Assembly: GCA_023150935.1 (NCBI GenBank)
Contig: JAKLJW010000008.1
Location: forward strand, 1,721 to 65,720
Source of the DNA: Candidatus Binatia bacterium
Lineage (GTDB): Bacteria; Desulfobacterota; Binatia; HRBIN30
DNA: 64,000 nucleotides
Direction: 5' to 3'
Made by a program: the position numbers and the translations under genes. Shown in pieces: positions 3,347-34,745 of the stretch. Each line of letters starts with the position of its first letter. Within the stretch, counting starts at the first letter, position 1. The notes beneath the pieces are model-generated. The model saw only the letters and a program-made list of their open reading frames with translations, made no database searches and was not told the DNA's origin.

Positions 3347-4480
3347 TCACAGCCCCAACTGCCGCGAGGCCAGTTCTTTCATGATCTCCTCCGCGCCGCC
3401 GCCGATGGCATTGACCTTGACCTCGCGGTAGATGCGCTCGACCCGGGTGCCGCGCATGTAGCCCATACCGCCGTGGATCTGCACCGCCTCCGACGCGCAG
3501 AAGGCCATGGTTTGCGTCGCCTGGTTCTTCAGCATGGCGATGTCTGCAACCGGCGAGTCACCGTTCTGTATCCGCCACGCCAGCATTTCGAGGTACGCCT
3601 GGGTGGCGTTGATGCGCATCGCCATGTCGACCAGCTTGTGGCGGATAACCTGCTGGTGCATGAGCGGCTTACCGAAGACCATCCGTTGCCGCGCCCAGGC
3701 GATGGCTTCCTCGAGGCAGACGCGCGAGAACGCGTTGGCGCTGGCGGCCATGCCGATCCGTTCGCCGTTGAAATTGAGCATGATGCCGAGGAAGCCCATG
3801 TTTTCTTCGCCGATCAGATTGGTGACGGGCACGCGCACGTCGTCGAAGATCAACGTCGCGGTGTCGGAAGCCCACCAGCCCATTTTCTTCAGCGGCGTCC
3901 GCGTGAAGCCGGGCATGTCCTTTTCCAGCAGCAGGAGAGAGATGCCGCCCATGCCGGGCCCGCCGGTGCGCACCGCAACGGTGACGAAGTCGGCGCGCAT
4001 GCCGGAGGTAATGAAGGTCTTGCTGCCGTTGACGACGTAGTGGTCGCCGTCGCGGCGTGCGCTGGTGCGCAAGCTGGCGACGTCGGAGCCGGCGTCCGGT
4101 TCGGTAATCGCGAGGGCGCTGATCTTGTCGCCGGCGAGAACGGGCGGGAGCACGCGGCGTTTCATTTCCTCGCTGCCGAGGCGGGCGATCGGCGGACAAC
4201 CGATGCCGTGGCTCATAAGACTGGCGGAAATGCCACCGGACCCCGCGCGGGCGAGTTCCTGCGCGGCGACAATGGCGAAGAAGAGATCGGCGGGCGTTCC
4301 TCCGTACTCCTCGGGAAAGCCCGCGCCGATCAGGCCGACGGCGGCAGCTTTCTTGTAGAGTTCGCGGGGAAACCCTTCGGCCTCGTCCCACTCGTCGACG
4401 TGGGGGGTGATTTCCTGCTCGACGAAGCGGCGGATGGTGGCGCGGAATTCCTCGTGGCTGGGGGTATAAAACGGGCTCAT
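3347..4480 (-). CDS. Acyl-CoA dehydrogenase
   Basis: Full-length ACAD fold signature (…GGMGYMRG…EIYEG… pattern, FAD/CoA-binding layout). Start is either ATG 4480 (MSPFYTPSHEEF) or the upstream ATG at 4507. Confidence 0.85.
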   Translation of the reverse strand: MSPFYTPSHEEFRATIRRFVEQEITPHVDEWDEAEGFPRELYKKAAAVGLIGAGFPEEYGGTPADLFFAIVAAQELARAGSGGISASLMSHGIGCPPIARLGSEEMKRRVLPPVLAGDKISALAITEPDAGSDVASLRTSARRDGDHYVVNGSKTFITSGMRADFVTVAVRTGGPGMGGISLLLLEKDMPGFTRTPLKKMGWWASDTATLIFDDVRVPVTNLIGEENMGFLGIMLNFNGERIGMAASANAFSRVCLEEAIAWARQRMVFGKPLMHQQVIRHKLVDMAMRINATQAYLEMLAWRIQNGDSPVADIAMLKNQATQTMAFCASEAVQIHGGMGYMRGTRVERIYREVKVNAIGGGAEEIMKELASRQLGL

Positions 4481-8173: not shown

Positions 8174-8202
8174 GTTTCCGATTCCGTCCCGACCCTGCTC
8201 GG

Positions 8203-8340
8203 TTCCCTCTCCCTCAACTTCTGCTTCGAAAATCCGGGAGGGCAAGCGCAATGGCGGGTAGCCATCGGGGTCGGCATCGGTATCGGAATCGGTATCGATT
8301 CGAATGCCTCGATCCCGATAGCGATTCCGACCCCGACCCC
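8203..8340 (+). repeat. Repeat family copy A (core ~8241-8340; contains GGNATC hexamer run)
   Basis: About 100 bp at roughly 90% identity to 20032-20126, with weaker similarity extending about 40 bp upstream (…gtccctctcc…). It lies in the convergent gap between hicA and rnfD. Confidence 0.7.
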
Positions 8341-8403
8341 GCAGAGGGCACCACATTTTCATCCTCTTCAGACGACCGCCAGGTCATGGGCGGCATGTGC
8401 GGC

Positions 8404-8424
8404 AACGCGCGCGGAGCGCGCGTT
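8404..8424 (+). terminator. GC hairpin aacgcgcgc-gga-gcgcgcgtt (copy A), shared component of the repeat element
   Basis: Perfect 9-bp stem with 3-nt loop. An identical hairpin sits at 20534-20554. It is 128 bp downstream of the rnfD stop. No U-tract. Confidence 0.35.
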
Positions 8425-8551
8425 CCACCCGGGCGACTCGACTCCCCGCTTGCACCACCTGCCGCACGGGGATCCCGGCGTGCCACTGGCGCCCTGCCGG
8501 CCAGGGAAGTCGAAATCGTCGCGCCGGGCACACATCCGCGGGAATCGCAAC

Positions 8552-15808: not shown

Positions 15809-16851
15809 CGCAGCCATTGCAAGCGGTCGCCTTCGAGACGCAGGCCCCGCGACAGATGTACTCGGCCATCGCGATCGACGGCGAGAGCCTCGACGTCCGG
15901 CAGTGCGTCGGCCAGCGCAATCCCCCGTTCCCAGCCGAGCACGGCGATCGCGGTAGCCAGCGCGTCGGCGGCGGTGCCGTTGCCGGCGATCGCGGTCGCA
16001 CCGGTCACTTCGCGTGCCGGCCAGCCGGTGCGCAGGTCGACGATATGCTGATAGCGCGTGCCATCGACGGCGAAGAACCGTTCGTAGTCGCCGGAAGTGG
16101 CGATCGCGCAGTCGGTGGCCGGGAGCGTTGCGAGCAGGGTGTCGCGGCGCGGATCGCGCACCCCGACGATCCACGGGGCACCGTCCCGAGAGCCGCCGAC
16201 GACGACGTCGCCACCCGCATCGACGATGAAATTCGGGAAGCCGATCTGCCGCAGCCGCGCGGCCATGCGGTCGGCGGCGAAGCCCTTGCCGATGGCGCCG
16301 AAGCCGAGCTTCATGCCCGCACGGGCAAGGCCGATGCGGGCGCCTTCCTGCCGAATGCCCCGGTAGCCGACCAGTGCCTGGCGTGCGGCGATTTCCGCGC
16401 CGGCCGGCAGCCTTCGGGTCAGCCGCGCCCGCTCCCACAACTCGAAGAGCGGTCCCCCGGTGACGTCGAAGGCGCCGTCGCTGCGGCGCGCCCATTCAAT
16501 CGATCGCTCTACCAGCTCCTGCAGTTCGGGTCCGACGGCCACCGTCGCGGCCCCGGCCGCGGCATTGATCGCCGACGTCTCGCTGCCCGGCTGCCACTCG
16601 CTGATGCGCGCCTCGATCGCGGCGGCCAGGTCGAGCGCCTCGTTGGCGGCCGCGGCCGCGCGCGGCTGAGCGCCCGCTTCCGCCCACACCGACACCTCCA
16701 CCAGCGTACCCATCATGGGCCGCGCCACCCGGACGATCGCTCCGGCCGAACCGGGCCGGCCGCGCCGCTCGGCAACGCCGAGCGCGACCAGCACGGCAAC
16801 GCCCACCGCGACCGCCGCTATTCGATAGATAGGACGTACCGTGTCAGGCAT
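15805..16851 (-). CDS. apbE: FAD:protein FMN transferase (ApbE family)
   Basis: GAIGKGFAADRMAARL, DAGGDVVVGG and TSGDYERFF motifs. Signal/TM at the N-terminus. Start ATG 16851 verified codon-by-codon (MPDTVRPIYRIA…). Confidence 0.8.
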   Translation of the reverse strand: MPDTVRPIYRIAAVAVGVAVLVALGVAERRGRPGSAGAIVRVARPMMGTLVEVSVWAEAGAQPRAAAAANEALDLAAAIEARISEWQPGSETSAINAAAGAATVAVGPELQELVERSIEWARRSDGAFDVTGGPLFELWERARLTRRLPAGAEIAARQALVGYRGIRQEGARIGLARAGMKLGFGAIGKGFAADRMAARLRQIGFPNFIVDAGGDVVVGGSRDGAPWIVGVRDPRRDTLLATLPATDCAIATSGDYERFFAVDGTRYQHIVDLRTGWPAREVTGATAIAGNGTAADALATAIAVLGWERGIALADALPDVEALAVDRDGRVHLSRGLRLEGDRLQWLR

Positions 16852-19800
16852 TCGATATCCCAGACGGTCAGGTGCGACGTGACGCCGTGTGTGTCCGGCA
16901 ACCCGTCCCGCTCGTTGAGTCCCCGCTCGCGTTGGTCGGGCCGGTCGGCGTCGGGCCGCGGAGCCGGCAGGCGGCCCAGCGCGGGATGGTCGGGAGTGCA
17001 GAGCACCTCGCGCAAGCTGACCGCGTGTCCGTGGTGCAGAAACCGCGGCGGCCGCGCCCACAGGCCGCGCAGCGACGGCGCCACGAAGAACCCTTCGCGC
17101 TCCTCGACGCGCCCGCCATCGTCCGGATCCCAGGGGCGAACGTAGCCGTTGATCGCGTCGATCCGGTCAGCGCTGACGAGGGTGTGCGCGTCGTCTCGGG
17201 CGGCCGGTGTGACGAGCGGCGGGAAGGCCCGGTTCTGATTGTACGCGTGTTGTTTGTCGGTAAAGGCCGGCGCCGGATGACAGCCGGCGCAGCCGACCCG
17301 CGGGCTTTCGAACAGCGCCCGTCCGTGCCGCACCATCGGGTCGCCGGGATCGACCGGGTTGGGCAGCAGGCGCGGCTCGCCGCGCTGGTAGTCGCCGATG
17401 AACTTCTGCAGCTCGCGGAACGAGTAGGCGCGGCCGAGGTATCTTGCCGAGATCCGTGCAAAGTGCCGGTCGCGCCGCTTGAGCAGGTCGGCCAGCGTCA
17501 CGCCTTCCCGGTTCCACGCCCGGCCGGTGGCAACCACGATCGTGTCGGCCGAGGTCGCGTAACGGGCGGCGTCCTCGGCGGTGACACGGATGCCGTCGAA
17601 ATCGCCCGCCGGCGTGTGCCCCTGGAAGTCGACCAGCGGGTTGTGCTCCATCATCATGGTCAAGGGCTCGTCGATCGACAGTGTGCCTTCGACGAAGAAG
17701 GGGACCTTCTGAACCAGCGCCCGGAGGTCGGGAACCTCACGGCTGCCTCCCGTACGCTCGTCGCCGTGGCGGCTCTGGCCCATAACCTGGCTGACGCTCC
17801 ACTGCTTCCCGTCGGAGGTATCGCGGTAATGGCAATGAACGCAGCTCTGATCCTGGTCGACCGAGAACACGCTGGTCTGCACGAAGAACTCGCCGCGTTC
17901 GAAGTCAGTGGCCGGGAACGCTTGGGGTAGCCGCGATACCGAGCGGGTGACGGTTGTACCGTCGCGCATATCGACGAACGTGACGCTCTCGTCGAGGTGG
18001 TTGGCGACCACCAGCGTCGACCCGGCGACCGCCAGACCCGTAGGTTTGAGGCCGGTGGCGAAGACGCGACCGGGGCGCAGTCGCCCGGACGGCGGCGCAT
18101 CGACCGAAACGTGCCATTCCTGCACTTCGAAGGTGCCCGACATGGAGACGAACAGGCGGTCGCCGTCCGCGGCGATCTGTTCCGGGAAGGCGCCGGCGAC
18201 GCGCAGAAGATCCGGCGGCAGATCGCCTTTGACGTCGCCGGGAAGGGCTTCGAACGAATCGGACGTGTAGCGAGTGAAGGTCTCCGAAGCCGTGTACACA
18301 TCGACGCGCTCAGCGCCCGGATCGAGGATGACGATGTCGTTGCCGATGTCGCGGAACTTCTCCTGCGCGGTGCCGTCGACGGCATCGAACCGACCGAGCG
18401 GCCGTTGCCTGTCGAGCGGCAGCGGCCGGGCCGTGGCGGGATCGCGCCACAGCGTGAAATCGGCGTTCGGCTCGCGGGAATCGAGGCTCTCGCGACCGGC
18501 GTCGTGGTCGCCAGGGTGTCCCGAACCGACGTTGAGCGTGGCGAACACGAGTCGGCCTCGCGCCCAGGCGATGTCGTTGACCGGCGAACGGGTGAAGATG
18601 CGCCGCGTCTCGCGCCGCGAGCCGAGATCGACCACCGACACGTCGAGCGACCCGGTGTTGGCGACGTACAGCGTGCTGCCGTCCGGCGCGATGGCCATGT
18701 CGCGCGGTTTGTCGCCGACGGAGATGCCAGGCCCCTCGGTGCCGTCGGCGATCCAACGGCGCAGCGCTGCGAAGTCGGGATCGCGGTCCGGTTCCGGAAA
18801 CACGACGCCGCCGGGGTGATGCTTGCCGTCGATGCTGTCGGCACGGCCACCGTGACGCGTTGCGGTCACCGCAAGGAGAAGCGGACTGAGTTCCGGCGCT
18901 CCGGCGCGCGCGTGGACGACCGTGCTCCGAAAGATCTGCCGGTCGTCGCGACCGGCATAGAACCCGCCGGCCGCATAGAGGTGGCAGCTCGCCGTGCCGC
19001 AGCGGGCGCGCAGGACGCCTTTGATGCCGTCGGGACCGCCCGTTTGCGGGGGCGGGGCGATTTCCTCGAGCGGGGCGAAGCCGCAGCGCACGCACCGGGT
19101 CGCCGCCGGGTTGGCATCGCGCCATCCACACATGGGACACTTGCGCCACCCGGTCGGGTGGCGCCGTGGCGTACCGAAAAACCGGCGGCGGTCGAAACCC
19201 AGCTCGCGCAGCCGACCGGAGAGCCGGTCGTCGTCCCACGTCAGGTCGACCACGAGCACCTGGTTCGTCCAGAAGTTCGAGACGTAGACCGTGCGCCCAT
19301 CCGGCGCGAAGATCAGATCCTCGGCGTAGAACGGCACGGGGATGCTGGAGACGACGCGGTCGGTGGCGACGTCGATCACGGATAGGTAGTTGGAGAATCG
19401 ATTGGTGACGACGACCCAGCGACCCGTGGGGTGCAGAGCGATTCCGTACGGGTGGGACCCGACGGCGACGCGGCCGATCTCGCGCCGGCGGGGCACGTCG
19501 AAGACAACGACCTCCGACCCCGGAGCGATCTCCTTGCCGGCGAGCGTCACGTAGGCCCTGGCACCGTCGAGGGTGGCCGCGACGCGGTAAGGCCGGGTGC
19601 GAAGCGGCTGGCGGGGCAGCGACGGATCGGGGTTGGCGACGGGCAACAGGTTCCGGGGCGCCTCCGGGGCCGAGCTATCGTCGGGCGTGCCTGCAAGGTC
19701 AACCGGCGGTGCCACCGGCACCGCCCGCCCGGCATCGTGGTTGCCGGCAGAATTACGGTACAGCGAAACCCCGATGCCGGTAACGAGCGCGGCGCACGCC

Positions 19801-19892
19801 AGGACGGCGAGCCAGAGATCTCCCCTGTCTTGGCGGTCGATCGGCCGCCGTCGAGGGCGAGGGATTCGACTTGATCCCGGAAGCTCGAACAT
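16818..19892 (-). CDS. Large (~1020 aa) exported protein: YVTN-type beta-propeller repeats, zinc-ribbon, and C-terminal di-haem cytochrome c peroxidase (CCP/MauG)-family domain
   Basis: YVTLAG/VVVTN/VYVSN repeats. CPMCGW…CVRCGF zinc ribbon. CVHCH and CAGCH motifs about 170 aa apart. C-terminal …APSLRGLWARPPRFLHHGHAVSLREVL matches the CCP-family PSLRN…PYFHDG…TLEEVV motif. Ends with TAG at 16818-16820. Confidence 0.6.
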   Translation of the reverse strand: MFELPGSSRIPRPRRRPIDRQDRGDLWLAVLACAALVTGIGVSLYRNSAGNHDAGRAVPVAPPVDLAGTPDDSSAPEAPRNLLPVANPDPSLPRQPLRTRPYRVAATLDGARAYVTLAGKEIAPGSEVVVFDVPRRREIGRVAVGSHPYGIALHPTGRWVVVTNRFSNYLSVIDVATDRVVSSIPVPFYAEDLIFAPDGRTVYVSNFWTNQVLVVDLTWDDDRLSGRLRELGFDRRRFFGTPRRHPTGWRKCPMCGWRDANPAATRCVRCGFAPLEEIAPPPQTGGPDGIKGVLRARCGTASCHLYAAGGFYAGRDDRQIFRSTVVHARAGAPELSPLLLAVTATRHGGRADSIDGKHHPGGVVFPEPDRDPDFAALRRWIADGTEGPGISVGDKPRDMAIAPDGSTLYVANTGSLDVSVVDLGSRRETRRIFTRSPVNDIAWARGRLVFATLNVGSGHPGDHDAGRESLDSREPNADFTLWRDPATARPLPLDRQRPLGRFDAVDGTAQEKFRDIGNDIVILDPGAERVDVYTASETFTRYTSDSFEALPGDVKGDLPPDLLRVAGAFPEQIAADGDRLFVSMSGTFEVQEWHVSVDAPPSGRLRPGRVFATGLKPTGLAVAGSTLVVANHLDESVTFVDMRDGTTVTRSVSRLPQAFPATDFERGEFFVQTSVFSVDQDQSCVHCHYRDTSDGKQWSVSQVMGQSRHGDERTGGSREVPDLRALVQKVPFFVEGTLSIDEPLTMMMEHNPLVDFQGHTPAGDFDGIRVTAEDAARYATSADTIVVATGRAWNREGVTLADLLKRRDRHFARISARYLGRAYSFRELQKFIGDYQRGEPRLLPNPVDPGDPMVRHGRALFESPRVGCAGCHPAPAFTDKQHAYNQNRAFPPLVTPAARDDAHTLVSADRIDAINGYVRPWDPDDGGRVEEREGFFVAPSLRGLWARPPRFLHHGHAVSLREVLCTPDHPALGRLPAPRPDADRPDQRERGLNERDGLPDTHGVTSHLTVWDIECLTRYVLSIE

Positions 19893-19986
19893 CCCCCAAC
19901 CGCCGTAGTCCCGTGAGGAGTTGAAGACAGCCAGCATATGCGACGCGAACGAAGGGGCGGTCAAGTACCTCATCCCGCTGCGCAGT

Positions 19987-20126
19987 CAGGTCCCTCTCCT
20001 TCGAACATTGGGATGGGTGGGACCGGGGATGGGCAAGTGCAATGGCGGGCAGCCATCGGGGTCGGCATCGGCATCGGTATCGATCCGATTCCCTCGATCC
20101 CGATAGCGGTTCCGACCCCGACCCCA
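19987..20126 (+). repeat. Repeat family copy B (core ~20032-20126)
   Basis: Same orientation as copy A, about 90% identical over the core. Lies about 100-250 bp upstream of the start of the 16818..19892 gene. Confidence 0.7.
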
Positions 20127-20142
20127 CGGCAACAGCACCCCA

Positions 20143-20500
20143 CCGCGGAGTCAGGTCCCTCTCCCAGCGGGAGAGGTCAGGTGAGGGGATCCACATCCTC
20201 CCGCAGTTCAGTCCCGTGTCACGATCGCCACGCCCCGCACCGCTTCCCCAATTCTCGCCAGCACACCCTCGATGTTTTCAATCACGTCGTTGTTCCAGAA
20301 CCGCACAACCCGGCACCCCGAGAGTTTCAGAAACCGGGCACGCTCTTGGTCGTATTCCCGTTGCTCCAAGTGCTGACCGCCATCTACTTCCACCACCAGC
20401 CTCGATTCCACGCAACAGAAGTCGACGTGACGCTCGTGCCTCATTCGATCTTATCCCCTCACCTGTCCTCTCCCGCCGGGAGAGGAACCTGACTCCGCGG
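20143..20500 (+). mobile_element. MITE/REP-like cassette: 48-bp inverted repeats (20143-20190 and 20453-20500, 45/48 identical) flanking a DUF559 gene fragment
   Basis: Each arm is itself a palindrome (cctctccc-agc-gggagagg). The cassette is the only material present in repeat copy B but absent from copy A, which suggests a nested insertion. Confidence 0.5.
20208..20444 (-). pseudogene. N-terminally truncated DUF559 (very-short-patch-repair-like endonuclease fold) protein fragment
   Basis: …VDFCCVESRLVVEVDGGQHLEQREYDQERARFLKLSGCRVVRFWNNDV… is the conserved C-terminal two-thirds of DUF559 proteins. The N-terminal region is replaced by the inverted repeat. Confidence 0.6.
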
Positions 20501-20533
20501 CGGGGTGCTGTTACCGTGCTGTGGCGGGCATCG

Positions 20534-20554
20534 AACGCGCGCGGAGCGCGCGTT
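20534..20554 (+). terminator. GC hairpin aacgcgcgc-gga-gcgcgcgtt (copy B)
   Basis: Identical to 8404-8424. It is about 20 bp downstream of the TAA of the 20575..23127 gene. Confidence 0.35.
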
Positions 20555-20574
20555 TCACCTGGGCGGGCCGGTGG

Positions 20575-23127
20575 TTACTGCGGTACCGCCCGCCAACTCC
20601 GGTGCGCCGGCACGCCGATCTCCGGCGCATGGCCGAGCACCGCGTACGGATATGCGAAGGCCAGGGCATCGCGCTGCACGTCGAGCGGCGGGGCGTCGCC
20701 CAGGTACGGCGCGATCAGCAACCGGAAATGCTGCCGCTGTCCGTTGTAGGAAGGCGCATGCGGATCGGTAGTGTCCGCCAGCTTCTCCGCCAGGAACTTG
20801 CCGAGACCCGTGACCCCCGTGGCGTAAGAGAGTTGCCGGCCGTAGTAGCTGCCGAAGGGATTGAGAAAGATGAGCGTCTCGTTGCCGTCGCGGCGCGTGC
20901 GCATCGGGCAGAACGCGAAACACGCCATCGCATCGGCCGTCTGCGCAACCAGCAACCCGCGTTCGCCGTCGCTGACGGCGACCCAGCCGTGGGTGACGTG
21001 GTTGTTGAACGCGTCGAGTTCGCGGTTAGCCGAGAAGGCGCCGTACTCGGGCTCGTAGCTGCTGACGTGCCCGAAGTAATTGTGCTTCCACACCCGCAGC
21101 GGGCGTCCCGGTCGACCGCGCAACGCCGGCACGATCTCGCACGGCATCACCTCGTGCCAGTGGCCGTCGTAAACCTGTTCGAGGCGCCGTGCCCGCTCGC
21201 GCTTGAAGTTGCGCGAGTGCGTGTGCGGATAGCGGACGCGCGTATCCACGAACAGGTACGGCAGGCCGGTCGCCAACAGGTACTCGCGCTCGAACTCCAC
21301 GTCGGCGGCAGGCTCGCTGTAGATGGTCGCTTTCCCGCGCACACCCACGATCCCGATATTGCCATCGCCGAGTGCGGCTACGGTCGTGGGTTCCCATTGC
21401 GTCACCCGGGTTACGGCCCCGCGGTAGGTCACGGCGCTGCGCATGACTTCTCCCGCGCTCCATTGCTGTCCGAGCGCGGTCAGGCCCACTGGCCGGCCCG
21501 CGGCGTCGAAGGCGAGGGTCAGATGCTCGTTAAGCAGCACACCGTCGCGCGCGATGACGGTCCCCGACGACGGCGCGATCGCGGGTGCTCCCAGTTCGAG
21601 GCGGTACGGGCGCCGCTCGCCCGCCTCCAGCGTCGCCACGAAGAGCAGTTCGCCGTCGGCGTTGCCGGGAGCGCCGGAAAGGCCACGCACCGCCGCGGTC
21701 TGCCTCCGGCCGTCGCCGGTGACGACCGCGGCGCCAGCCGGCGGCGCGGCAGCGAGGCGCAGCGGCAGTCGCACCAGCGCCCGCGACGGGGCGGCGGCGT
21801 AGGTTACGGCGTCGGTGGAGACGCCGCGCACGTAGTCCACGAGCGAGAACGAAAAGCCCTGCGGATCTTCGGCCGTGGCGCCGGCGGCCAGATCGAAGGC
21901 CCGGGCGGCCTCGGCGACCGCTTCGTCGACCAGGGCGGTGACCGTGTGCAGCCGGGTCTTGTTGACGATCGGGGAGGCCAGACCGAAGTGAGTGGTCGAA
22001 AGCGCGAGGAGGCGCGCCTGCGCCGCGGCCTCGAGCCGCGCCGCGATGACGTCGCGGTCGCCGCCGGAGAGGGAATCGTCGCACAGGCGGCGCGCCTGCA
22101 GGTCGAGGATGCGGGCCCGTTCGATGCCCGTCCAGATGTGATGGTTCGACCATTTCTCCGCCCAGCTCGAGTAACCGTCGAAACTGCCGTCGGCCGTGTC
22201 CTGCGCAATGACGATATCGGCCAGAGGGGGGTGGGTTTCCAGGTACGCGCCGGGGGTCGTGAAGGCGACGAAGTCGAGCCCGCGGGCAATATCGATCAAA
22301 CCGTCGAGGCCGCGAAGCTCCGGCATGAGACGATCGATCAGCGGCACGGAGACCCCGGCCCAGAAAGGGTCGTCGGCGTCGGCATCGAGCAGGAGCAGGA
22401 AGTCGATCGGCTCCGCCATGGCGAGTTGATAGCGCCGCAAGCGCCGCAGCCAGCGCGCGAACGAGACGTGCTCGGCGAGGTCGCCGTGGTTGTGCGCCGG
22501 CAGGAGGACCATGGAGCGCTCGATACCCGAGTAGGTCAGGCGCAGCGGATTGCAGCGCCGTTCGAGGGGCAACGGCGGCACGAAGTTGCTGAAGGCGTTG
22601 AACGGCACGCCGCTGTAATAGAGGCTGATGCAGTCGATGCCGTGGCGCGGGTACAGAGCCAGGTGCAGCGGCGTGTACATCATCTCCTGCGGGCGTACGA
22701 TCGGCGCGAAAGTGCCGAAGAGGTCGCGTACGCCCGACCCGGCTGCGTTGGTCAGGGCGCGAGAGATAGCGGCGTCGAATTCGCTGGCCGTGTGCGCGGC
22801 AATCAAACCGTTGTTGTACGACATCGCCTCGACTTCGTCCTGCCCGGCGGCGACGCGGCGCCGGATAGCGGCGATCAGGTCGGGGCAGTGCGCGGGCATG
22901 ATACGTTCGAGCGAGAAGTAGTTCTCGATATCCCAGGTGCCGCGCACCGGCACGCCGCGCGCATTCCAGGTGTCGAGGACCTCGACGATCCGGCGGATGA
23001 TGCGGATGTCCTTGCCGAAGCCGTCCTCGTCGACCGTGTCGCCGCGGTAGGAATGGTAGAAGTTCGCGTGAAAGCGAAACGCGAGATGGATCCGCGGCGC
23101 AGAGGCGGCTGCCGGCGTGCCTGCCAT
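20575..23127 (-). CDS. Large (~850 aa) putative carbohydrate-active enzyme (GH57/GH38-like N-terminal domain); function uncertain
   Basis: N-terminus RIHLAFRFHANFYHSYRGD…DIENYFSLE loosely resembles the GH57 motif. Start ATG 23127 (MAGTPAAAS…) was chosen over upstream Arg-rich codons. Confidence 0.4.
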   Translation of the reverse strand: MAGTPAAASAPRIHLAFRFHANFYHSYRGDTVDEDGFGKDIRIIRRIVEVLDTWNARGVPVRGTWDIENYFSLERIMPAHCPDLIAAIRRRVAAGQDEVEAMSYNNGLIAAHTASEFDAAISRALTNAAGSGVRDLFGTFAPIVRPQEMMYTPLHLALYPRHGIDCISLYYSGVPFNAFSNFVPPLPLERRCNPLRLTYSGIERSMVLLPAHNHGDLAEHVSFARWLRRLRRYQLAMAEPIDFLLLLDADADDPFWAGVSVPLIDRLMPELRGLDGLIDIARGLDFVAFTTPGAYLETHPPLADIVIAQDTADGSFDGYSSWAEKWSNHHIWTGIERARILDLQARRLCDDSLSGGDRDVIAARLEAAAQARLLALSTTHFGLASPIVNKTRLHTVTALVDEAVAEAARAFDLAAGATAEDPQGFSFSLVDYVRGVSTDAVTYAAAPSRALVRLPLRLAAAPPAGAAVVTGDGRRQTAAVRGLSGAPGNADGELLFVATLEAGERRPYRLELGAPAIAPSSGTVIARDGVLLNEHLTLAFDAAGRPVGLTALGQQWSAGEVMRSAVTYRGAVTRVTQWEPTTVAALGDGNIGIVGVRGKATIYSEPAADVEFEREYLLATGLPYLFVDTRVRYPHTHSRNFKRERARRLEQVYDGHWHEVMPCEIVPALRGRPGRPLRVWKHNYFGHVSSYEPEYGAFSANRELDAFNNHVTHGWVAVSDGERGLLVAQTADAMACFAFCPMRTRRDGNETLIFLNPFGSYYGRQLSYATGVTGLGKFLAEKLADTTDPHAPSYNGQRQHFRLLIAPYLGDAPPLDVQRDALAFAYPYAVLGHAPEIGVPAHRSWRAVPQ

Positions 23128-23171
23128 GATGTCGCTCCTTTCCTCGTCCGCCGGTGCGCCCGGTCTGGGAA

Positions 23172-26100
23172 CTAAGTGGTGTGGCCGCGGTCGATTGCCG
23201 GCGTTGCCGCCGGCGGTAGACCGGGGGCCGCCGAAGGCACACGATCGGCTCGGCGTCCGCTGATTCGCGCCAGGAAGCGGCCGATATCCTCGAGAACCAG
23301 GTACCCGCACGGAACCACGAGCAGCGTGATAAGCGTTGCGAACAGCACCCCATAACCGAGCGAGATGGCCATCGGGATTAGAAACTGCGCCTGGACGCTT
23401 TGCTCCGTCATCAGAGGCAACAATCCGACGAAGGTCGTCAGTGAAGTCAGCACGATGGGCCGAAACCGGGCCACGCCCGCTTCGGTAATCGCGTCGTGGA
23501 CGGTCACGCCTTCGCTGCGGGCCTCGTTGACGAAGTGCACCAACACCAGACTCGCGTTCACCACCACACCGGAAAGGGCGACGATACCGATCACCGACAT
23601 CATGCTCAGATGTCGACCCATCAAGAGGTGCCCGCCGATCGCACCGACGATGCCGAACGGAATCACGCTCATGATGATGAACGGCTGGGTATACGAACCC
23701 AGCGGGATCGCCAGCAACGCGTACACCGCGAACAGCGCCAGAACGTACGCGCCCAGCAAACCCGACAGCGCGCGGGTCTGCTCGCGTTGCTCCCCTTCGA
23801 GATCGTAAGACACCGACGGGTAGTCGGCGAGGATGCGCGGCAGCTTCTCGCCGGTCATATCCTCCAGCACTTCGTTTGCCGTCGTCACCGCGCGGTCGAC
23901 GTCGGCCGTAACGTTGACGACGCGCTTGCGGTCGGTGCGCCGGATCGTCGAATAGCCGCGGCCGAGATCGACCGTGGCCACCGTCGAAAAGGGCACCTCG
24001 GTGCCGTCCGGGGCGCGCACGCGGAGATTTTCGAGATCGCCGATCGAAGTTCGATCGCGCTCCGGGTACCGGACCATGACCCGGATGTCGTCGCGCCCGC
24101 GCTGGATGCGTTGCGCCTCCTGTCCGTAGAAAGCCTGCCGCACCTGACGCGCGAGGTCCTGCAGGGTCAACCCCAGCAATTCGGCCGACGGTCGGATGCC
24201 GAGCTTGATCTCGCGCTTGCCGGCACGAAAGGAGTCGGCGATGTCGACGACGCCGGGATAACGCGCGAGTTCGTCCTTTACGCGCCGTGCCGCCTGCGCC
24301 AGTTCATCGATGTCGGTGCCGGCCAACTCGATATCGATGGCGTTGCCGGCCGAAAACAGGTCGGAGGCATACCCGAGCTCGGTCGCTCCCGGCACGGCGC
24401 CGACGAGATCGCGCCAGCGCTGGCCGATCTCCCCGGTGCTGATGTCGCGCTCCTCGGAAGGCACGAGCCCGATCACCACCTCGGCGACATTGCCGCGCAC
24501 TTCGCCGATCCCCTGCACCGCCGCGGGGTTATTGTCCTGCCGGTCCTTCAACGGCTGCGCCCCGACCGCCGTGAGCACGTTCTTGAATAGACTGGCGCCG
24601 GGCCGCGCGTGCGCCGCGTCGATCTCCTGCCGCAACGGCCCCACGGCCGCCGCGATACGGTCGACCGCCGCCTGCGTGACTTCGGCGGTCGTGCCCGGCG
24701 GCATCGTCAGACGGGCTGACAGGTAATCCGCCTCGATGGGCGGAAAGAAGGAGAAGTGCATGCGGCCGCTGGCAACCACCGTGAACGCCAGCAGCAACAG
24801 TACCATCGCAATGGCAATGGTCGTGTAGCGCCATTCCTGCGCCAGCACCAACACCGGGCGGTAGACCTTGTGCGCGAAAGCTATCAACCCATCGCTGCAG
24901 CGGTCTTGCAGCCCCACCCATGCGCGCCCGACTCGGGTACGAGGTCCGCGGTGCGGATGGGCGTGACCGAGATGAGCGGGCAGCACGAATTGCGACTCGA
25001 TCAGCGAACACACCAGGCACGCGATCGACACGATGCCGGCGACGGCGAACACCTGGCCCATCGGGCCCGGCAGCACCACCATCGGCACGAACGTCGCCAC
25101 GGTCGTCAGGACGCCGAAGACCACCGGTACCGTCACCTGTTGCGTGCCGATCACCGCGCCTTCGAGGTTGTTGCCGAGCTTCTCCTGCCAGGTGTGAACG
25201 CTCTCGCCGACCACCGTGGCGTCGTCGACGAGGATGCCGAGCACGACGATGAACGCGAACAGCGAAATGACGTTGATCGAGATGCCGAGCGGATTGAACA
25301 GCGCGAGAGCGCCGAGGAAGGAAATCGGGACGCCGAGGGTTACCCACGCCGCCAGTCGCGTGTGCAGGAACAGCGTGAGCACGATAAACACGAGAATGAA
25401 CCCGCTTCTCGCGTTGCTCAGCAGCGTTTCGAGCCGGCCGCGCAACGGCACCGAATCGTCTTGCCAGACGGTCAGCGAGACGCCCTCGGGCAGCCGCGGT
25501 TGGGCCGTGGCGACGTATTCTTTGACCGCCTCCGCGATCTCGATAACGTCCTGCTGCCCGACCCGAAACACCTGGATCAGCAGCGCGGGTTTTCCGTCGA
25601 AACGTCCCGAGACGCTGGTATCCGCGAAGCCGTCGACGACCGTGGCGACGTCGCCGAGCGTTACCCGGGTGCCGTCGGCGCGCGTGAGGACGATGATGTC
25701 CTCGAAGTCCGGCCCGCGGTACGCCTGCCCTTTCGCGCGCAGCAGGATTTCTCCGCCGGCCGTCTCGATGGTGCCTCCGGGCAGATCGAGCGAAGAGCGG
25801 CGGACGGCGGCGGCGACATGATCGAACGTGATGCCGTGGCGGCGCAGCGCCTCCTCGGAAATCTCGATCGAGATCTCGAACGGCCGCGCCAGTACCACGT
25901 CGACCTGAGTGATCGCCGGATGGGCGGCAAGCTCGTCGCGGATCCGTTCGGCAATGGCGCGCAGGCTGCGCTCGTCGGCGGGCCCGTAGAGGGCGATGTC
26001 GCTCACCGGGCGCCGAATCGTAACGCGCGCCACGATCGGCTTCTCCGTCTCCGTGGGAAACGTGTTGATGGCATCGACGCGGTTCTTGATGTCGGTGAAC

Positions 26101-26414
26101 ACGCGATCGACGTCGGAGCCGGCGAGCACCTCCGCAATAACCGCACATGCTCCCTCGGCGGCCGTCGAACGAATGCGGTCGATGCCGTCGATACCGTCGA
26201 TCTGCTCTTCGATGCGAACGCAGACGCCCTCTTCGACTTCCTCGGGCGCGGCGCCCAGGTACTCGACGGCGACGCTCACCATGTCGATATCGATGTCCGG
26301 GAAGGTCTTTTGCGGAATCGACGGCAGGGCCATCAGGCCGCCGACGACGAGAACCATCATCAGCAGGTTGGCCGCGACGTTGTTGCGCGCGAACCAGGCT
26401 ACCGCCGTCTTCAT
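23172..26414 (-). CDS. RND-family efflux permease (AcrB/CzcA superfamily)
   Basis: About 1080 aa with 12-TM RND topology and two large periplasmic loops. Start at MKTAVAWFARNNVAANLLM (ATG 26414). Confidence 0.85.
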   Translation of the reverse strand: MKTAVAWFARNNVAANLLMMVLVVGGLMALPSIPQKTFPDIDIDMVSVAVEYLGAAPEEVEEGVCVRIEEQIDGIDGIDRIRSTAAEGACAVIAEVLAGSDVDRVFTDIKNRVDAINTFPTETEKPIVARVTIRRPVSDIALYGPADERSLRAIAERIRDELAAHPAITQVDVVLARPFEISIEISEEALRRHGITFDHVAAAVRRSSLDLPGGTIETAGGEILLRAKGQAYRGPDFEDIIVLTRADGTRVTLGDVATVVDGFADTSVSGRFDGKPALLIQVFRVGQQDVIEIAEAVKEYVATAQPRLPEGVSLTVWQDDSVPLRGRLETLLSNARSGFILVFIVLTLFLHTRLAAWVTLGVPISFLGALALFNPLGISINVISLFAFIVVLGILVDDATVVGESVHTWQEKLGNNLEGAVIGTQQVTVPVVFGVLTTVATFVPMVVLPGPMGQVFAVAGIVSIACLVCSLIESQFVLPAHLGHAHPHRGPRTRVGRAWVGLQDRCSDGLIAFAHKVYRPVLVLAQEWRYTTIAIAMVLLLLAFTVVASGRMHFSFFPPIEADYLSARLTMPPGTTAEVTQAAVDRIAAAVGPLRQEIDAAHARPGASLFKNVLTAVGAQPLKDRQDNNPAAVQGIGEVRGNVAEVVIGLVPSEERDISTGEIGQRWRDLVGAVPGATELGYASDLFSAGNAIDIELAGTDIDELAQAARRVKDELARYPGVVDIADSFRAGKREIKLGIRPSAELLGLTLQDLARQVRQAFYGQEAQRIQRGRDDIRVMVRYPERDRTSIGDLENLRVRAPDGTEVPFSTVATVDLGRGYSTIRRTDRKRVVNVTADVDRAVTTANEVLEDMTGEKLPRILADYPSVSYDLEGEQREQTRALSGLLGAYVLALFAVYALLAIPLGSYTQPFIIMSVIPFGIVGAIGGHLLMGRHLSMMSVIGIVALSGVVVNASLVLVHFVNEARSEGVTVHDAITEAGVARFRPIVLTSLTTFVGLLPLMTEQSVQAQFLIPMAISLGYGVLFATLITLLVVPCGYLVLEDIGRFLARISGRRADRVPSAAPGLPPAATPAIDRGHTT

Positions 26415-26418
26415 CCGC

Positions 26419-27615
26419 TCAGTGCGCCCCGGCGGCGGCCGTCGCCACCGCCGCGTTGTTCCGCATGGCCGGGCGGACGCGCATGCCGTCGACGGCGGTC
26501 TCGATCGCCGAGGTGACGATGCGATCTCCGCGTGCGAAGGTCTTCGCGGCCAGCACAACGTCGCGGCGCTCCCGGCGGATCACATCGGCGCGGCGCATTC
26601 GCAGTCGGTCGTCCGCATCCACCACCAGGACGTGATCTCGATCGCGCATCGCCGCCCGGGGCACCACGACGACCTCGTCGACGGTCCGGCCCAGGATCTC
26701 GGCCTCGACGAACAGACCGACCGCCAGGGGCGGCGCCCCGTCGTTGTCGCCGTAAGGATCGTCGACCGCGGCAACCAGGTTCACCAGGCGACTGCGCGTG
26801 TCGATCTCGCCCTCGGTGCGCACGACATGTCCGCGCCACTCCTGTTCGCGACCGGCAAACTCGGCGCGCAGGACGACTTCCGGGTTTTCGGCCGGCGGCA
26901 GACCGCTACGGCTCAGGAGCGGCACATCGATAAAAGCCAGTTCCGCATCGGCGATCGGCAGGCGGACTTCGGCGCGGTCGATGGCGTACAGGTGAGCCAC
27001 AGGAGCGCCGCGGCTAACGAACTGGCCGACGTCGACGGTCTCGCGGCGCACTCGTCCCGTAAACGGCGCGCGCAGCCTGGTCCGATCGAGATCGCGCTCG
27101 GCCTGTTCGAGTGCGGCCCGAGCCTCCCGCAACGTCGCCGCGGTTACGCGTTCGGCACGCTCGACGTCGTCGAGTTGAGCCTGGCTGGCGACGCCCGTCT
27201 TGATCAGGCCGCGCAGCCGCTCGAGTTCCTTGTCGGCGCGGACGTGCTCGCTTTCGGCGCGGGCCAGCGCCGCCCGCGCCCGCTCGCGCGCCACTTCGTA
27301 GTCGGCGGGTTCGATCTCGATCAGGACCTCCCCCTCCTCGAAGAACCCGCCCGAAACCAGTCGCGGCGATACCCAGACCGCCTTGCCCGAGACCTGCGGC
27401 ACCAGATCGCTCTCGGTCCGGGCCGAGACGGTACCCTGGGTACGCACCCGCATCCGGTGACGGGTGACGTTAACCGGGGCCACTTCGACCGCCGGCGCGA
27501 CCGCCTCCGGGACCCGTTCCGTTACATCCGGCGCGGTTGCGAACAACAGCGCCACGGCACCCAGGCCGGCCGCGAACACGGCAACCGGTAGCACGATCTT
27601 GAGGGTTCGCTTCAC
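26419..27615 (-). CDS. RND efflux periplasmic adaptor (membrane fusion protein, HlyD family)
   Basis: Signal anchor, coiled-coil hairpin, and lipoyl/beta-barrel regions. GTG 27615 (VKRTLKIVLPVAVFAAG). Ends 5 nt before the permease start. Confidence 0.8.
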   Translation of the reverse strand: MKRTLKIVLPVAVFAAGLGAVALLFATAPDVTERVPEAVAPAVEVAPVNVTRHRMRVRTQGTVSARTESDLVPQVSGKAVWVSPRLVSGGFFEEGEVLIEIEPADYEVARERARAALARAESEHVRADKELERLRGLIKTGVASQAQLDDVERAERVTAATLREARAALEQAERDLDRTRLRAPFTGRVRRETVDVGQFVSRGAPVAHLYAIDRAEVRLPIADAELAFIDVPLLSRSGLPPAENPEVVLRAEFAGREQEWRGHVVRTEGEIDTRSRLVNLVAAVDDPYGDNDGAPPLAVGLFVEAEILGRTVDEVVVVPRAAMRDRDHVLVVDADDRLRMRRADVIRRERRDVVLAAKTFARGDRIVTSAIETAVDGMRVRPAMRNNAAVATAAAGAH

Positions 27616-27719
27616 GATCGCGACTATAGGAGGTCGCCTGCCCCAATCAAGGTAGAGCCTCGACGGGGCGGCTCGAGGCATCGCCGGACCCCGGCGGGCG
27701 CTCGGCCGCGGTTGGCGAC

Positions 27720-30389
<2,670 letters not shown>

Positions 30390-30635
30390 GGCGACTGCTA
30401 CCCGGCGAGAGCGTCGAACGGCACCGGCTCGGCACGATCCGCATGCCCCGCCCCCGTGCAGGGACGCTCCGGCGTCGTCCGGGTCGGGACTCTCGGCCAC
30501 GATCGACGGCTAACGGGGCATCGCAGTCGAACCCACCGCGGGCCCGCACAAGCGATCTGTTCATCCGCGGCCGTCATTCACGCAGCTTGTACTTGACGCA
30601 AGCTGCCCCGTCGAGACGGCCGGGTTCCAGCGGGG

Positions 30636-32403: not shown

Positions 32404-32580
32404 GTACCGTCCGCAAGACTATTCGATTTGAGAACATGGGCAAGGCGGGGATGAAGGGCCTGGGGGATCCACCACCTCACGTCCCCACGCCCTCATGCCC
32501 CCATGCCCTCACGCCCCAAGCCCCCAGCCATTGTCCCCGCCCTCCGTTTGCGTATTCTCTGGGCCCGGAGGACCGTACTC

Positions 32581-33786
32581 ATGCCTGCAGAACACGGCGC
32601 GCCCCCGTGGCGTAGCTTCGATCTCTTCGCCCCCACCGACGAACACCGCATGCTCGCCGACACTCTGCACACTTTCGTCCGCGACGAGGTGGAACCGCAA
32701 GCCGCCGCTTACAACCGCGACGAGCGCTTCAACCTTGCCCTGTTCCGCCGCGCCGGCGAACTCGGCCTGCTCGGGCTCACCATCCCCGAAAGCGAAGGCG
32801 GCGCCGGACTCGATGCCACCGCCGCGGTCATGACCCACGAGGCCCTCTCGTATGCCGACCCCGCCTTCTGCCTCTCGTACCTGGCGCACGCCGTGCTCTT
32901 CGCCCACAACTTCGCCCACAACGCCACCCCCGCCCAGCTTGCCCGCGTCCTGCCCAAAGCCATCAGCGGCGAGTGGATCGGCGGCATGTGCATGACCGAA
33001 CCGGACGCCGGCACCGACGTCCTCGGCATGCGCTCCACCGCCGTCCGCCAGGGCGATCACTACGTCCTCAACGGCCGCAAAATGTTCATCACCAACGGCG
33101 CTGTCGACGACCACACCCTCGGCGACGTCTTCCTCGTCTACGCCAAGACCGACGGCAAGATCAGCACCTTCCTGATCGAGAAGGGATTTCCCGGATTCGC
33201 CCTCGGCCAGCGCCTGCACGACAAGCTCGGCATGCGCGCCTCGATGACCGCCGAGCTGGTCTTCGATAACTGCATCGTGCCCGCCGGCAACCTCATCGGC
33301 CACGAAGGCGAGAGCATGAAACACATGATGCGGAACCTCGAGATGGAACGTCTGACCCTCGCCGCCATGTCGCTCGGCATCGCCATGCGCGCGGTCGAGG
33401 TCATGTTCCGCTACGCCAACGAGCGGAAGGCGTTCGGCACCGCCATCCGTGACTTCGGTCAGGTTCAGGCCCACCTCGCCAACTCGTACGCCGAGTTCAA
33501 AGCCGCCCGCGCCCTGGTCTACGATGTCGCGCGCCGGCTCGACCCCAGCACCTTCGGCAACCGCGCCGACGCCGACGCCGCTAAACTGTTCGCCGCCCGC
33601 ATCGCCAAAGACATCGCCGACCGCGCCATTCAGGTCCTCGGCGGCTACGGCTACATCGGCGAGTACGTCGTCGAACGCCTGTGGCGCGATGCCAAGTTGC
33701 TGGAGATCGGCGGCGGCACCAACGAGGCGCACCAGAAGAACATCACCAAAGACGTCTCCCGCACCCCGGAGATGATCCGCCGGTGA
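32581..33786 (+). CDS. Acyl-CoA dehydrogenase (isovaleryl/short-branched-chain type)
   Basis: Canonical ACAD architecture with …GGYGYIGEYVVERLWRDAKLLEIGGGTNE… C-terminus. ATG 32581. Confidence 0.85.
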   Translation: MPAEHGAPPWRSFDLFAPTDEHRMLADTLHTFVRDEVEPQAAAYNRDERFNLALFRRAGELGLLGLTIPESEGGAGLDATAAVMTHEALSYADPAFCLSYLAHAVLFAHNFAHNATPAQLARVLPKAISGEWIGGMCMTEPDAGTDVLGMRSTAVRQGDHYVLNGRKMFITNGAVDDHTLGDVFLVYAKTDGKISTFLIEKGFPGFALGQRLHDKLGMRASMTAELVFDNCIVPAGNLIGHEGESMKHMMRNLEMERLTLAAMSLGIAMRAVEVMFRYANERKAFGTAIRDFGQVQAHLANSYAEFKAARALVYDVARRLDPSTFGNRADADAAKLFAARIAKDIADRAIQVLGGYGYIGEYVVERLWRDAKLLEIGGGTNEAHQKNITKDVSRTPEMIRR

Positions 33787-34745
33787 ACCGCCCCATTCTC
33801 GCCGCAATGGTCACGCTCGCGGTCGCCGCCGGCACCGCATGCGCCCACCCCCCGCACGCCTCCACGTCCCCACGCCCCCACGCCCTCACGCCCCCACGCC
33901 CCCCCCGCTTCTTCGTCCACGGCGACGGCCGTTTACGGCTCCGCCACGCCCACTTCAACAGCGTCCTCGACGTTCGCTATCGCCGCCCCGACGGCACTTA
34001 CGATCCGGCGGCGCTGGCCGAGATCCGGCACTTCTTCCGTTCCCGCGGCGACGGACGCGAAGGCCGCATATCGCTGCGACTGATCGAGCTGCTCGGCTAC
34101 GTACAAACCCACTACCGGCCACGGACGATGACCCTCGTCTCCGGATATCGCAGTCCGGACTACAACGAAGGAATCCGCTCGGCCGGGGCGCTGGCGGCGC
34201 AAACCTCGCTGCACACCCAGGGCCTTGCCGCGGACGTGGCAATGACCGGCGTCAACTTGAAGCGGCTCTGGACCGACCTGCGCGCCGAACAAGTCGGCGG
34301 CGCCGGGTACTACCGTAGCGGCAACTTCCTGCACCTCGACACCGGGCCGCCGCGCTTCTGGGAGGAAACGACCTCGCGGGTGAAAGACAACCTCTCCGCC
34401 GACAACGCGCGCGTCTTCGTTCGCACGGACTTCGACTACTACGACCGGCTCGACGGCGCCCGGGTGGAGCTGCACAGCGTCACGGCGTTTCCCCTCGCGA
34501 TCCGCCGGGAAGCGTCCGTGGGGGGAACGCAGGTTGTGCTCGAAGCGGCGGACAACACGCCGGCGACGCGGCGCGGCGATTGCCTCGTCATCGACGCCCC
34601 GGCCGACGCCTACGTCTTCAACGTACGCTCCGCCGACGGGCACGGTTCCGCCGGCAAGGCGCCGCTGGTGCTCACCACCTGCGCGCCGCGCACCGGCAAG
34701 ACGAAGGCCGAACTGGTCTCGAATCCGATCGAGGCGGAGCGGTAG
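33783..34745 (+). CDS. DUF882 / peptidase M15A family protein (YcbK/MepK-like), secreted
   Basis: GTG 33783 overlaps the ACAD TGA (GTGA). Signal peptide present. SGYRSPDYNEGIRSAGALAAQTSLHTQGLAADV…LHLDTG core of DUF882 zinc peptidases. Confidence 0.7.
   Translation: MNRPILAAMVTLAVAAGTACAHPPHASTSPRPHALTPPRPPRFFVHGDGRLRLRHAHFNSVLDVRYRRPDGTYDPAALAEIRHFFRSRGDGREGRISLRLIELLGYVQTHYRPRTMTLVSGYRSPDYNEGIRSAGALAAQTSLHTQGLAADVAMTGVNLKRLWTDLRAEQVGGAGYYRSGNFLHLDTGPPRFWEETTSRVKDNLSADNARVFVRTDFDYYDRLDGARVELHSVTAFPLAIRREASVGGTQVVLEAADNTPATRRGDCLVIDAPADAYVFNVRSADGHGSAGKAPLVLTTCAPRTGKTKAELVSNPIEAER

Follow-up and report, generated by a model that had tools for sequence, protein, structure and literature searches.

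What is a fragment of a nuclease gene doing between two inverted repeats in an intergenic region? The question is raised by a 64,000-nt stretch of DNA (hereafter the window; contig JAKLJW010000008.1, positions 1,721 to 65,720) from the metagenome-assembled genome (MAG) of a Candidatus Binatia bacterium (assembly GCA_023150935.1). In this window a 394-bp element (20125–20518) carrying a shortened DUF559-family open reading frame (ORF) lies between two minus-strand genes, which encode a 1051-aa beta-propeller protein (16818–19973) and a 911-aa ORF without a Pfam match (20575–23310). A first-pass annotation, made from the letters alone, had described a 358-bp insert (20143–20500) bounded by 48-bp inverted repeats, and had taken the gene for a passenger remnant carried by a new family of elements resembling repetitive extragenic palindromic (REP) sequences or miniature inverted-repeat transposable elements (MITEs). 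We found a different picture: the element is a decayed, 5'-deleted member of a widespread architecture (repeat, DUF559 gene, inverted repeat) in which cassettes holding an intact gene are the norm, and the core of its repeat is the published BoxC/PIT/TM intrastrand-triplex motif, not a novel REP or MITE.

According to a repeat search, the window contains one short-range long inverted repeat, 20116–20190 against 20453–20527 (75 nt, 88% complementary, 262 nt between the arms). By exact count, 61 of the 66 positions (92%) of 20125–20190 are identical to the reverse complement of 20453–20518, including 45 of the inner 48; the repeats thus do bound the insert as first described, with a length of 66 nt and not 48. 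The local alignment score of the arms is 107, as compared to a maximum of 23 for shuffled flanks. Each arm is also a palindrome in its own right, as had been noticed: CCTCTCCC-N3-GGGAGAGG occurs once per arm (20158–20176 and 20467–20485) and nowhere else in the window, and is followed through TCA or ACA by GGTGAGGGG. The left arm (20125–20190, plus strand), downstream of the minus-strand DUF559 gene, consists of a locus-specific outer 32 nt (20125–20156), the pyrimidine arm CCTCTCCC (20158–20165), the loop AGC, the purine arm GGGAGAGG (20169–20176), the spacer TCA and a mirror purine tract GGTGAGGGG (20180–20188) that faces the gene. The right arm (20453–20518, minus strand), upstream of the gene, reads on the plus strand as CCCCTCACC (20455–20463), the spacer TGT, CCTCTCCC (20467–20474), the loop GCC and GGGAGAGG (20478–20485), and it ends 8 nt before the ATG of the ORF. 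Folded as a single strand, the whole element forms one long stem (z = −7.9); a single arm, in nearest-neighbour folding of single-stranded DNA, forms only the 8-bp hairpin (z-score −0.6 to −1.4).

The order of these parts is that of a repeat successively named BoxC, PIT (potential intrastrand triplex) and TM, with the consensus CCCTCNCCC-N3-6-GGGNGAGGG-N3-GGGNGAGGG (PMC4666352, Holder et al. 2015). We took as the defining architecture a pyrimidine arm, a 3–6-nt loop, a complementary purine arm, a short spacer and a third tract suited to G*G:C, A*A:T or T*A:T triplets, and wrote a strict finder that looks for the hairpin plus a mirror third tract. Both window arms show this architecture and are matched by the finder, at 20157–20186 (left arm) and at 20457–20486 on the minus strand (right arm). 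Checked by hand, CCTCTCCC, GGGAGAGG and GGTGAGGG give 8 allowed triplets out of 8, with the third tract antiparallel to the purine arm; against the Escherichia coli consensus one base differs in the second block (GGGAGAGGT for GGGNGAGGG), which puts the third tract one position out of register. Escherichia coli K-12 has 23 copies of BoxC/PIT/TM, five of them as close inverted pairs, and more than 260 genomes have many copies (PMC4666352). The window arms resemble these published repeats in architecture, in their near-identical sequence, in their intergenic position, in occurring singly and as close inverted pairs and in being prone to deletion; they differ in the additional 32 nt of locus-specific inverted repeat. 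As a separate observation on the repeat family, many of its variants have four tracts of G3 or more, which would suit a G-quadruplex; the window variant could form two tetrads at most, and none of the argument depends on such a structure.

The ORF between the arms (20208–20444, minus strand, 78 aa; NCBI annotation MCK6554345.1, 128-kb contig) is a 5'-truncated gene for a DUF559/YcjD-family nuclease, and here the early description of an N-terminally truncated DUF559 protein holds. It matches Pfam DUF559 (PF04480) over profile positions 46–108 of 109 (E = 2.4e-21; 76.1 bits, cut-off 20.6), its best NCBIfam match is the YcjD model (48–108 of 117, under that model's equivalog cut-off), and it matches PDB entry 3HRL with E = 9e-15. 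The N-terminal truncation is real, since an in-frame stop codon lies two codons upstream of the ATG and the repeat is 8 nt away. The closest full-length relative is P0006, a 119-aa protein also from Binatia, whose residues 48–119 align with 89% identity. In the numbering of the P0006 model, the window ORF has lost helices 4–14 and 18–27, the strand 38–43 and the first residues of the strand 46–52. The domain is therefore incomplete, with the invariant residues L12, R13, T17, E20, W24, F37, R39 and Q40 in the missing part; all invariants of the retained part (D49, F50, E60, D62, G63, G64, Q65, H66, D73, R76, R89, W91 and N92) are intact. The ORF is probably a pseudogene, and its truncation is probably recent and inactivating. 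An internal deletion beginning 8 nt inside the upstream repeat would have taken about 46 codons (~140 bp), which encoded two helices, the first strand and the beginning of the second strand. Most likely the gene is dead, though the 66-nt arms are still 92% identical, and the element as a whole, which we read as a dead relic, probably has no effect on the neighbouring genes. Recurrent truncation at one point was considered and ruled out: the short homologues P0012 and P0036 are start-codon mis-calls of full-length genes. The same applies across short DUF559 entries (72–82 aa; P0012, P0036 and P0088, and loci L286 and L287), which have full-length genes behind mis-called starts.

The Vsr/restriction-endonuclease-like fold that had been ascribed to the ORF is borne out on its full-length relative. 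The predicted AlphaFold structure of P0006 (predicted local distance difference test score, pLDDT, 90) was matched by Foldseek to 3HRL (TMt, the target-normalised TM-score, 0.93), to I-Bth0305I (3R3P; E = 1e-4, TMt 0.80) and to Vsr (1CW0; E = 0.03), and a sequence profile matched 3R3P with E = 0.0018. Structure and profile agree on the order of relatedness: closest is Neisseria gonorrhoeae NGO0050 (3HRL), followed by the catalytic domain of I-Bth0305I and then by Vsr. Within the same superfamily, a DUF559 protein of Caulobacter, VsrA, damages DNA in vivo in cells that lack the methylation cognate to it (PMC12907096), so members of the DUF559 family can be active nucleases. The resemblance to Vsr and VsrA has its limits: a partner cytosine methyltransferase was not seen beside the cassettes examined, Vsr genes have not been reported as bracketed by BoxC-type repeats, and the structural similarity to Vsr itself is weaker (the Foldseek E = 0.03 above). 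Foldseek with the P0006 model also returned several mitoribosomal large-subunit proteins of Toxoplasma and Tetrahymena with a DUF559-like domain (query-normalised TM-scores 0.6–0.7).

The first clue that the arrangement is not peculiar to this locus came from an unrelated metagenome contig of lower GC content, where the motif flanks a full-length DUF559 gene (protein 67% identical) left and right, its mirror tract turned towards the gene. We then collected 80 DUF559 loci from GTDB representative genomes, chosen by internal peptide patterns and so blind to their flanks (76 were testable with the strict finder), and a second, independent sample of 80 loci from JGI metagenomes (61 in the strict-finder count); the sampled genes are relatives of P0006 at ~50–64% identity. 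When the 300 nt upstream were compared with the reverse complement of the 300 nt downstream, about 70 of 78 GTDB loci showed a strong flanking inverted repeat, with arms of 40–160 nt and high identity, and this repeat was nearly always the triplex motif or a sequence variant of it. The strict motif was found on both sides, facing the gene, at 46 of the 76 GTDB loci and on one side at 11, as compared to a background in the rest of those loci of 0.051 per kb, or ~0.009 expected per flank (overall background 0.05–0.13 per kb). In the JGI sample it was found on both sides at 37 of 61 loci and on one side at 14, and 49 of 61 had an inverted repeat. Most intact copies are thus flanked by the same kind of repeats, which had been proposed as a check on the first-pass annotation. 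That annotation had also suggested that a full-length DUF559 gene elsewhere lacking the repeats would count against it; such genes do not refute the association, as most full-length copies have repeats. The part of its claim that stands is that a repeat family travels with DUF559, since most full-length YcjD-type genes sampled are bracketed and solo and paired copies exist elsewhere; among the parts that do not is the novelty of the family.

The hosts of the sampled loci include Alpha-, Beta- and Gammaproteobacteria, Binatia, Dehalococcoidia, SAR202, Nitrospirota, Desulfobacterota, Dadabacteria, Planctomycetota and a MAG of Syntrophomonadaceae (Firmicutes). Two Neisseria loci (L017 and L034) are likewise bracketed according to the strict finder. 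At many of the 20-kb loci the two flanking repeats are the only copies present. We also asked whether the pairing of "type A" and "type B" spacers seen in Escherichia coli is a general trait of the cassettes, and rejected this candidate, there being no consistent asymmetry in 38 cassettes. One locus (L286, 60–1849) differs in layout: an IS256-like (Transposase_mut) gene stands directly upstream of the DUF559 gene, in the place of the upstream repeat, and downstream a 69-nt triplex-motif unit is repeated in tandem through to the end of the contig.

The flanking repeats vary in sequence and keep their structure. Variants include GGGAGAGGG/GGGTGAGGG, GGGGGAAGG/GGATGGGGG, GGGGAGGG/GGGTGGGG and GGGAGGGG/GGGGGAGGG, and each keeps both the hairpin complementarity (in the pyrimidine arm) and the mirror symmetry of the third tract with the purine arm. 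In an unbiased test on 238 perfect asymmetric hairpins beside DUF559 genes, the third tract fitted a mirror model better in 100 and a direct-repeat model better in 45 (Wilcoxon p = 0.0013). The variants cluster with the nuclease tree; a Nitrospirae MAG groups with Xanthomonadales in this tree and has a repeat variant in common with them (mis-binning of the MAG is possible). Structured non-coding flanks that are kept despite proteins at 50–60% identity indicate that the repeats are either under selection or continually recopied from a pool in the genome.

Head-to-head pairs of repeats (mirror tracts facing each other) in all fetched loci fall into two size classes. In the first, 45 pairs have a gap of at most 60 nt (14–52 nt), and none contains a gene; in the second, with gaps of 316–500 nt, 88 of 90 pairs hold a DUF559 gene. 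Only seven pairs are intermediate, and among these the window pair (270-nt gap) is the lone one with a DUF559 fragment. Its gap is below the minimum of intact cassettes (317–318 nt), which fits what is expected of an internal deletion of ~140 bp (~46 codons). The repeats themselves greatly outnumber the genes: an exact scan of IMG/VR with the generic motif found at least 120 contigs, and among the matches listed only 6 of 145 repeats have a DUF559 gene within 600 nt. One case of repeat abundance is a Dehalococcoidia chromosome (OZ244908; locus L018, 5300–10650), where arrays of ~97-nt head-to-head doublets, whose arms are conserved and whose spacers vary (~22–28 nt), lie on both sides of a DUF559 gene, with 27 strict motifs in 20 kb. 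These arrays show REP-like proliferation in some genomes.

Evidence for mobility includes the mutually unrelated contexts in which the cassettes are found. In Escherichia coli, the interval between fabI and sapF holds either ycjD with a BoxC segment or the eefRABCD efflux operon; ycjD is present in 3375–3378 of 5426 genomes, and eefRABCD stands in its stead in ~2050. Where the operon replaces the ycjD segment, homology ends ~40 nt from TM #9, and at the eef junctions of one ycjD-negative genome we found no repeat, just a faint G-rich stretch. In locus L082 (Escherichia coli K-12, 1349500–1353000) and in L285, the reading frame of ycjD extends into a degenerate repeat located at its stop codon; next come a partial copy of the gene's own 3' end and, after it, BoxC/TM #9. 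At another locus (L288, 2630–3500; also L289–L296) a DUF559 cassette splits the normally overlapping carA and carB. There 13 nt (ATGCCTAAGCGCA, spanning the overlap of the carA stop and the carB start) are duplicated at both ends of an 843-nt segment, so that carA and carB are both intact. No target-site duplication is visible at the ends of the window cassette, and at the inverted-repeat boundaries of 94 cassettes there were none above control, contrary to the MITE-type transposition first suggested. No filled/empty polymorphism at a single locus was found. If the cassette moves at all, it does so rarely and not in the manner of a transposase.

Taken together, the reading we favour, and consider somewhat more probable than its opposite, is that nuclease and repeat are a cognate pair, the window element being a decayed copy of their repeat/DUF559/repeat cassette; we infer a functional coupling between the two. 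The Vsr-fold nuclease would recognise or cut the folded or palindromic repeat, and the module would persist and spread as one unit, either through break-induced recombination or homing into head-to-head doublets or through a dispersal of repeats like that of the REP-associated tyrosine transposases (RAYTs), without transposase-type cut-and-paste and its target duplications. In the RAYT/REP-like variant, the nuclease would act on folded repeats and disperse or homogenise them. In the homing variant, a dimeric nuclease would cut the palindromic empty doublet and repair would copy the gene in; homing into empty doublets would account for the two classes of gap size and for the centred gene. The published deletion-proneness of the repeats, whose loci are hotspots of deletion and rearrangement among strains (PMC4666352), would account for the decay in the window and for empty doublets elsewhere. 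The RAYT-like and the homing mechanisms are inseparable here; both fit, and both predict that YcjD-type proteins recognise BoxC DNA. More tentatively, and with rather less than even confidence, we propose that YcjD-family DUF559 nucleases may be the missing trans-acting partner of BoxC/PIT repeats; by nicking or cutting them, the nucleases would cause the repeats to spread, to be homogenised and to be deleted, and would drive their own homing into doublets.

Two known systems invite comparison with this proposed pair. Like the RAYT/REP system (including its paired REPIN form), it has a single-copy nuclease-type gene between inverted copies of a structured palindromic repeat, the repeat is far commoner elsewhere in the genome (singly and in inverted doublets), its variant follows the lineage of the gene, and target-site duplications are absent. 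Unlike that system, the gene here encodes a PD-(D/E)XK Vsr-fold nuclease and not a Y1/HUH IS200/IS605-like transposase, the repeat has a third, mirror-symmetric tract (triplex or G-rich) that REPs lack, and copy number is low in most genomes sampled. With homing endonucleases it shares the catalytic fold (among structural matches with a characterised function, I-Bth0305I, 3R3P, comes closest), a small gene that looks selfish and stands in intergenic contexts unrelated to one another, and empty and filled sites in two size classes. It differs from them in that the gene is free-standing and not in an intron or intein, that no single locus is polymorphic for filled and empty states, and that no second copies exist in the 5426 Escherichia coli genomes.

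Several observations weigh against a functional partnership. The strict motif is on neither side of the gene at 19 of 76 GTDB and 10 of 61 JGI loci, and in some loci (e.g. L022 and L030) it has the opposite orientation. In Escherichia coli, ycjD has a degenerate repeat at its stop codon, BoxC #9 ~170 nt downstream and none upstream. Ongoing mobility has left no sign: ycjD is single-copy in all 3378 carriers, and no repeat doublet in the 5426 Escherichia coli genomes is occupied by ycjD-like sequence. The identical proteins P0040 and P0058 each keep to one context across ~12 contigs, and among 72,556 plasmids just 36 have a homologue. An intact Binatia form of the window cassette was not seen, the closest protein in a protein-based metagenome scan having 63% identity. 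Formation of the triplex (of the purine motif) has been established in vitro, on single-stranded units of Escherichia coli sequence alone, and none was detected in vivo (PMC4666352). Co-localisation and co-variation could, moreover, reflect a co-inherited unit, without any binding or cutting.

This last point is the substance of the main rival, according to which the repeats are cis-acting flanks of the gene's own expression unit (a hairpin or insulator, the G-rich mirror tract acting like a Shine–Dalgarno sequence) that are co-inherited with the gene, with no relationship between nuclease and repeat and only ordinary horizontal transfer. The close fit of repeats and gene speaks for it: at many loci the upstream repeat lies within a few nucleotides of the inferred start (median ~5 nt), and many ORFs run into the downstream repeat, giving the PLPxGERG-like C-terminal peptides of many homologues. 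The gene is also single-copy and positionally stable in populations, and the co-variation of repeat with protein clade is what co-inheritance predicts. We nevertheless regard this explanation as unlikely. In published tests (cited in PMC4666352) PIT/BoxC acted neither as a promoter nor as a terminator, and cis-acting flanks leave unexplained the much greater number of solo copies and of doublets without a gene, the inverted orientation on both sides and the conserved mirror symmetry, which is irrelevant to an RNA hairpin or a Shine–Dalgarno sequence.

A good deal less probable is the original idea of a MITE/REP-like non-autonomous element with terminal inverted repeats of 48–66 nt, served by a transposase in trans and carrying the DUF559 fragment as cargo. 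The window element does look like a MITE, being short, with long terminal inverted repeats (61/66 identical) around a non-functional ORF; it is present in one copy (B) of a longer local repeat and absent from the other (A), and related repeats occur solo or paired, with many copies in some genomes. Beyond the missing target-site duplications, in the window and at the 94 cassettes with their control-like distribution, there is no cognate transposase: no transposase, recombinase or invertase gene lies within ~10 kb of the element, and in the published survey the repeat showed no association with transposase or mobility genes, nor with any functional class of neighbouring genes (PMC4666352). No further intact copy of the repeat exists in the 64 kb, and the window-specific outer sequence has 0 exact matches in 241 million metagenome records. 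The arms are a known structured repeat that normally surrounds an intact gene, and the supposed cargo is normally full-length (the 88 of 90 filled pairs), as befits a resident gene and not a picked-up remnant.

It is very improbable that the cassette is an invertible segment, in which the inverted repeats flip the nuclease gene relative to an outside promoter (by programmed or RecA-mediated inversion). Among predicted targets of programmed inversion, "DUF559 domain-containing protein" is 14-fold and "endonuclease domain-containing protein" 9.6-fold enriched (PMC9881135), and arms of 40–160 nt with high identity are enough for recombination. Those targets were predicted from inverted repeats themselves, so the enrichment is not independent evidence; no gene for an invertase lies near the window cassette, a search for promoter-like sites in and beside it gave none, and gene-less doublets and solo repeats would be left unexplained. 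Equally improbable is a fragile-site coincidence, with BoxC-type repeats as general recombination hotspots at which DUF559 is merely a frequent arrival: the repeats are tied to rearrangements (PMC4666352) and the fabI–sapF interval has its two alternative occupants, but 88 of the 90 head-to-head pairs with a 316–500-nt gap hold DUF559 and nothing else, the gene is centred, the orientation of the motif is fixed and the repeat variant tracks the nuclease clade.

The longer local repeat within which the window cassette lies has its copies at 8185–8445 (A) and 19972–20575 (B). Shared blocks are 8240–8340 with 20031–20125 (89–92% identity), the latter lying outside the cassette and abutting its left arm, and 8404–8435 with 20534–20565. 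Between the blocks, copy A has 63 unrelated nt (8341–8403) and copy B has 408 nt (20126–20533), and when the cassette is removed from B, ~40 nt of A are still without a counterpart. Copy B is thus not simply copy A plus an insert, as it had been described. That copy A might hold a more decayed cassette was also considered and rejected (its 63 nt have a best local score of 16 against B, the wrong strand giving 14, which is not significant). Of the two additional half-sites that had been reported, the one in copy B stands: an exact 15-mer, GTCAGGTCCCTCTCC, at 19985–19999 begins a degenerate solo repeat (19985–20033, plus strand) with a 10-nt loop and the G-rich tract GGGATGGGTGGGACCGGGGATGGG, whose hairpin is no longer intact and which fails the strict finder. 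The other, CTCGGTTCCCTCTCC at 8198–8212 (plus strand), has three mismatches and is not above chance as a count (4 matches, 2.4 expected); both are at the homologous start of the A/B repeat. This repeat is a composite: it joins the degenerate triplex half-site to an imperfect palindrome (GGGGTCGGCATCGG...CCGACCCCGACCCC) and to a hairpin with a perfect 9-bp stem, AACGCGCGC-GGA-GCGCGCGTT, at 8404–8424 and 20534–20554. Logan short-read contigs with the neighbouring 1051-aa gene stop 122 nt upstream of that gene, within the A/B repeat, which suggests that the genome has more copies of it. Elsewhere in the window, C-rich tandem octamer/16-mer repeats (CCCACGCC)n occur at 32456–32533 and 33841–33918, ~1.36 kb apart, and 4001–4157 is an inverted match to 32943–33099 (157 nt, 73% complementarity, 28.8 kb apart), probably paralogous coding sequence on opposite strands.

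The genes around the element include those for beta-propeller and cytochrome proteins, ApbE, RnfC, an RND pump, HlyD and a P-type ATPase. The RND efflux pump (AcrB family), the HlyD-like adaptor and the P-type ATPase lie at 23172–30500, 2.7–10 kb from the cassette; that an RND gene is a neighbour here, as compared to the alternation of ycjD with an RND operon in Escherichia coli, is probably a coincidence. The region 19800–20700 was screened for known RNA families, promoters and terminators, and none was found. Defence-system models gave just weak matches to nuclease domains.

Both components of the cassette were already known, and it is their systematic pairing that appears to be new. The published mention of ycjD in this connection is as a neighbour of TM #9 only (a supplementary table of Holder et al. 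places it 167 nt away and reports no functional pattern; PMC4666352), whereas here the repeats systematically bracket DUF559 genes; in the open-access literature searched we found nothing linking DUF559, ycjD or COG2852 to BoxC, PIT or TMECO. Known since the 1990s and present in hundreds of genomes, the BoxC/PIT/TM repeats have been tied to genome rearrangement, yet neither a function nor a gene for their mobility has come to light (PMC4666352); to DUF559/YcjD, a large family in which structures have been solved, no role has been assigned. The pairing suggests that each element explains the other. For annotation, it explains the spurious PLPxGERG C-terminal extensions and the mis-called starts, and it flags DUF559/repeat loci as assembly breakpoints. 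The window feature itself is an ordinary relic; what it draws attention to is a partnership of nuclease and repeat that can be tested and has apparently gone unreported. If this is true, a structure-specific system parallel to RAYT/REP and built on a Vsr-fold enzyme would give DUF559/YcjD a function and would explain both the origin and the instability of the repeats.

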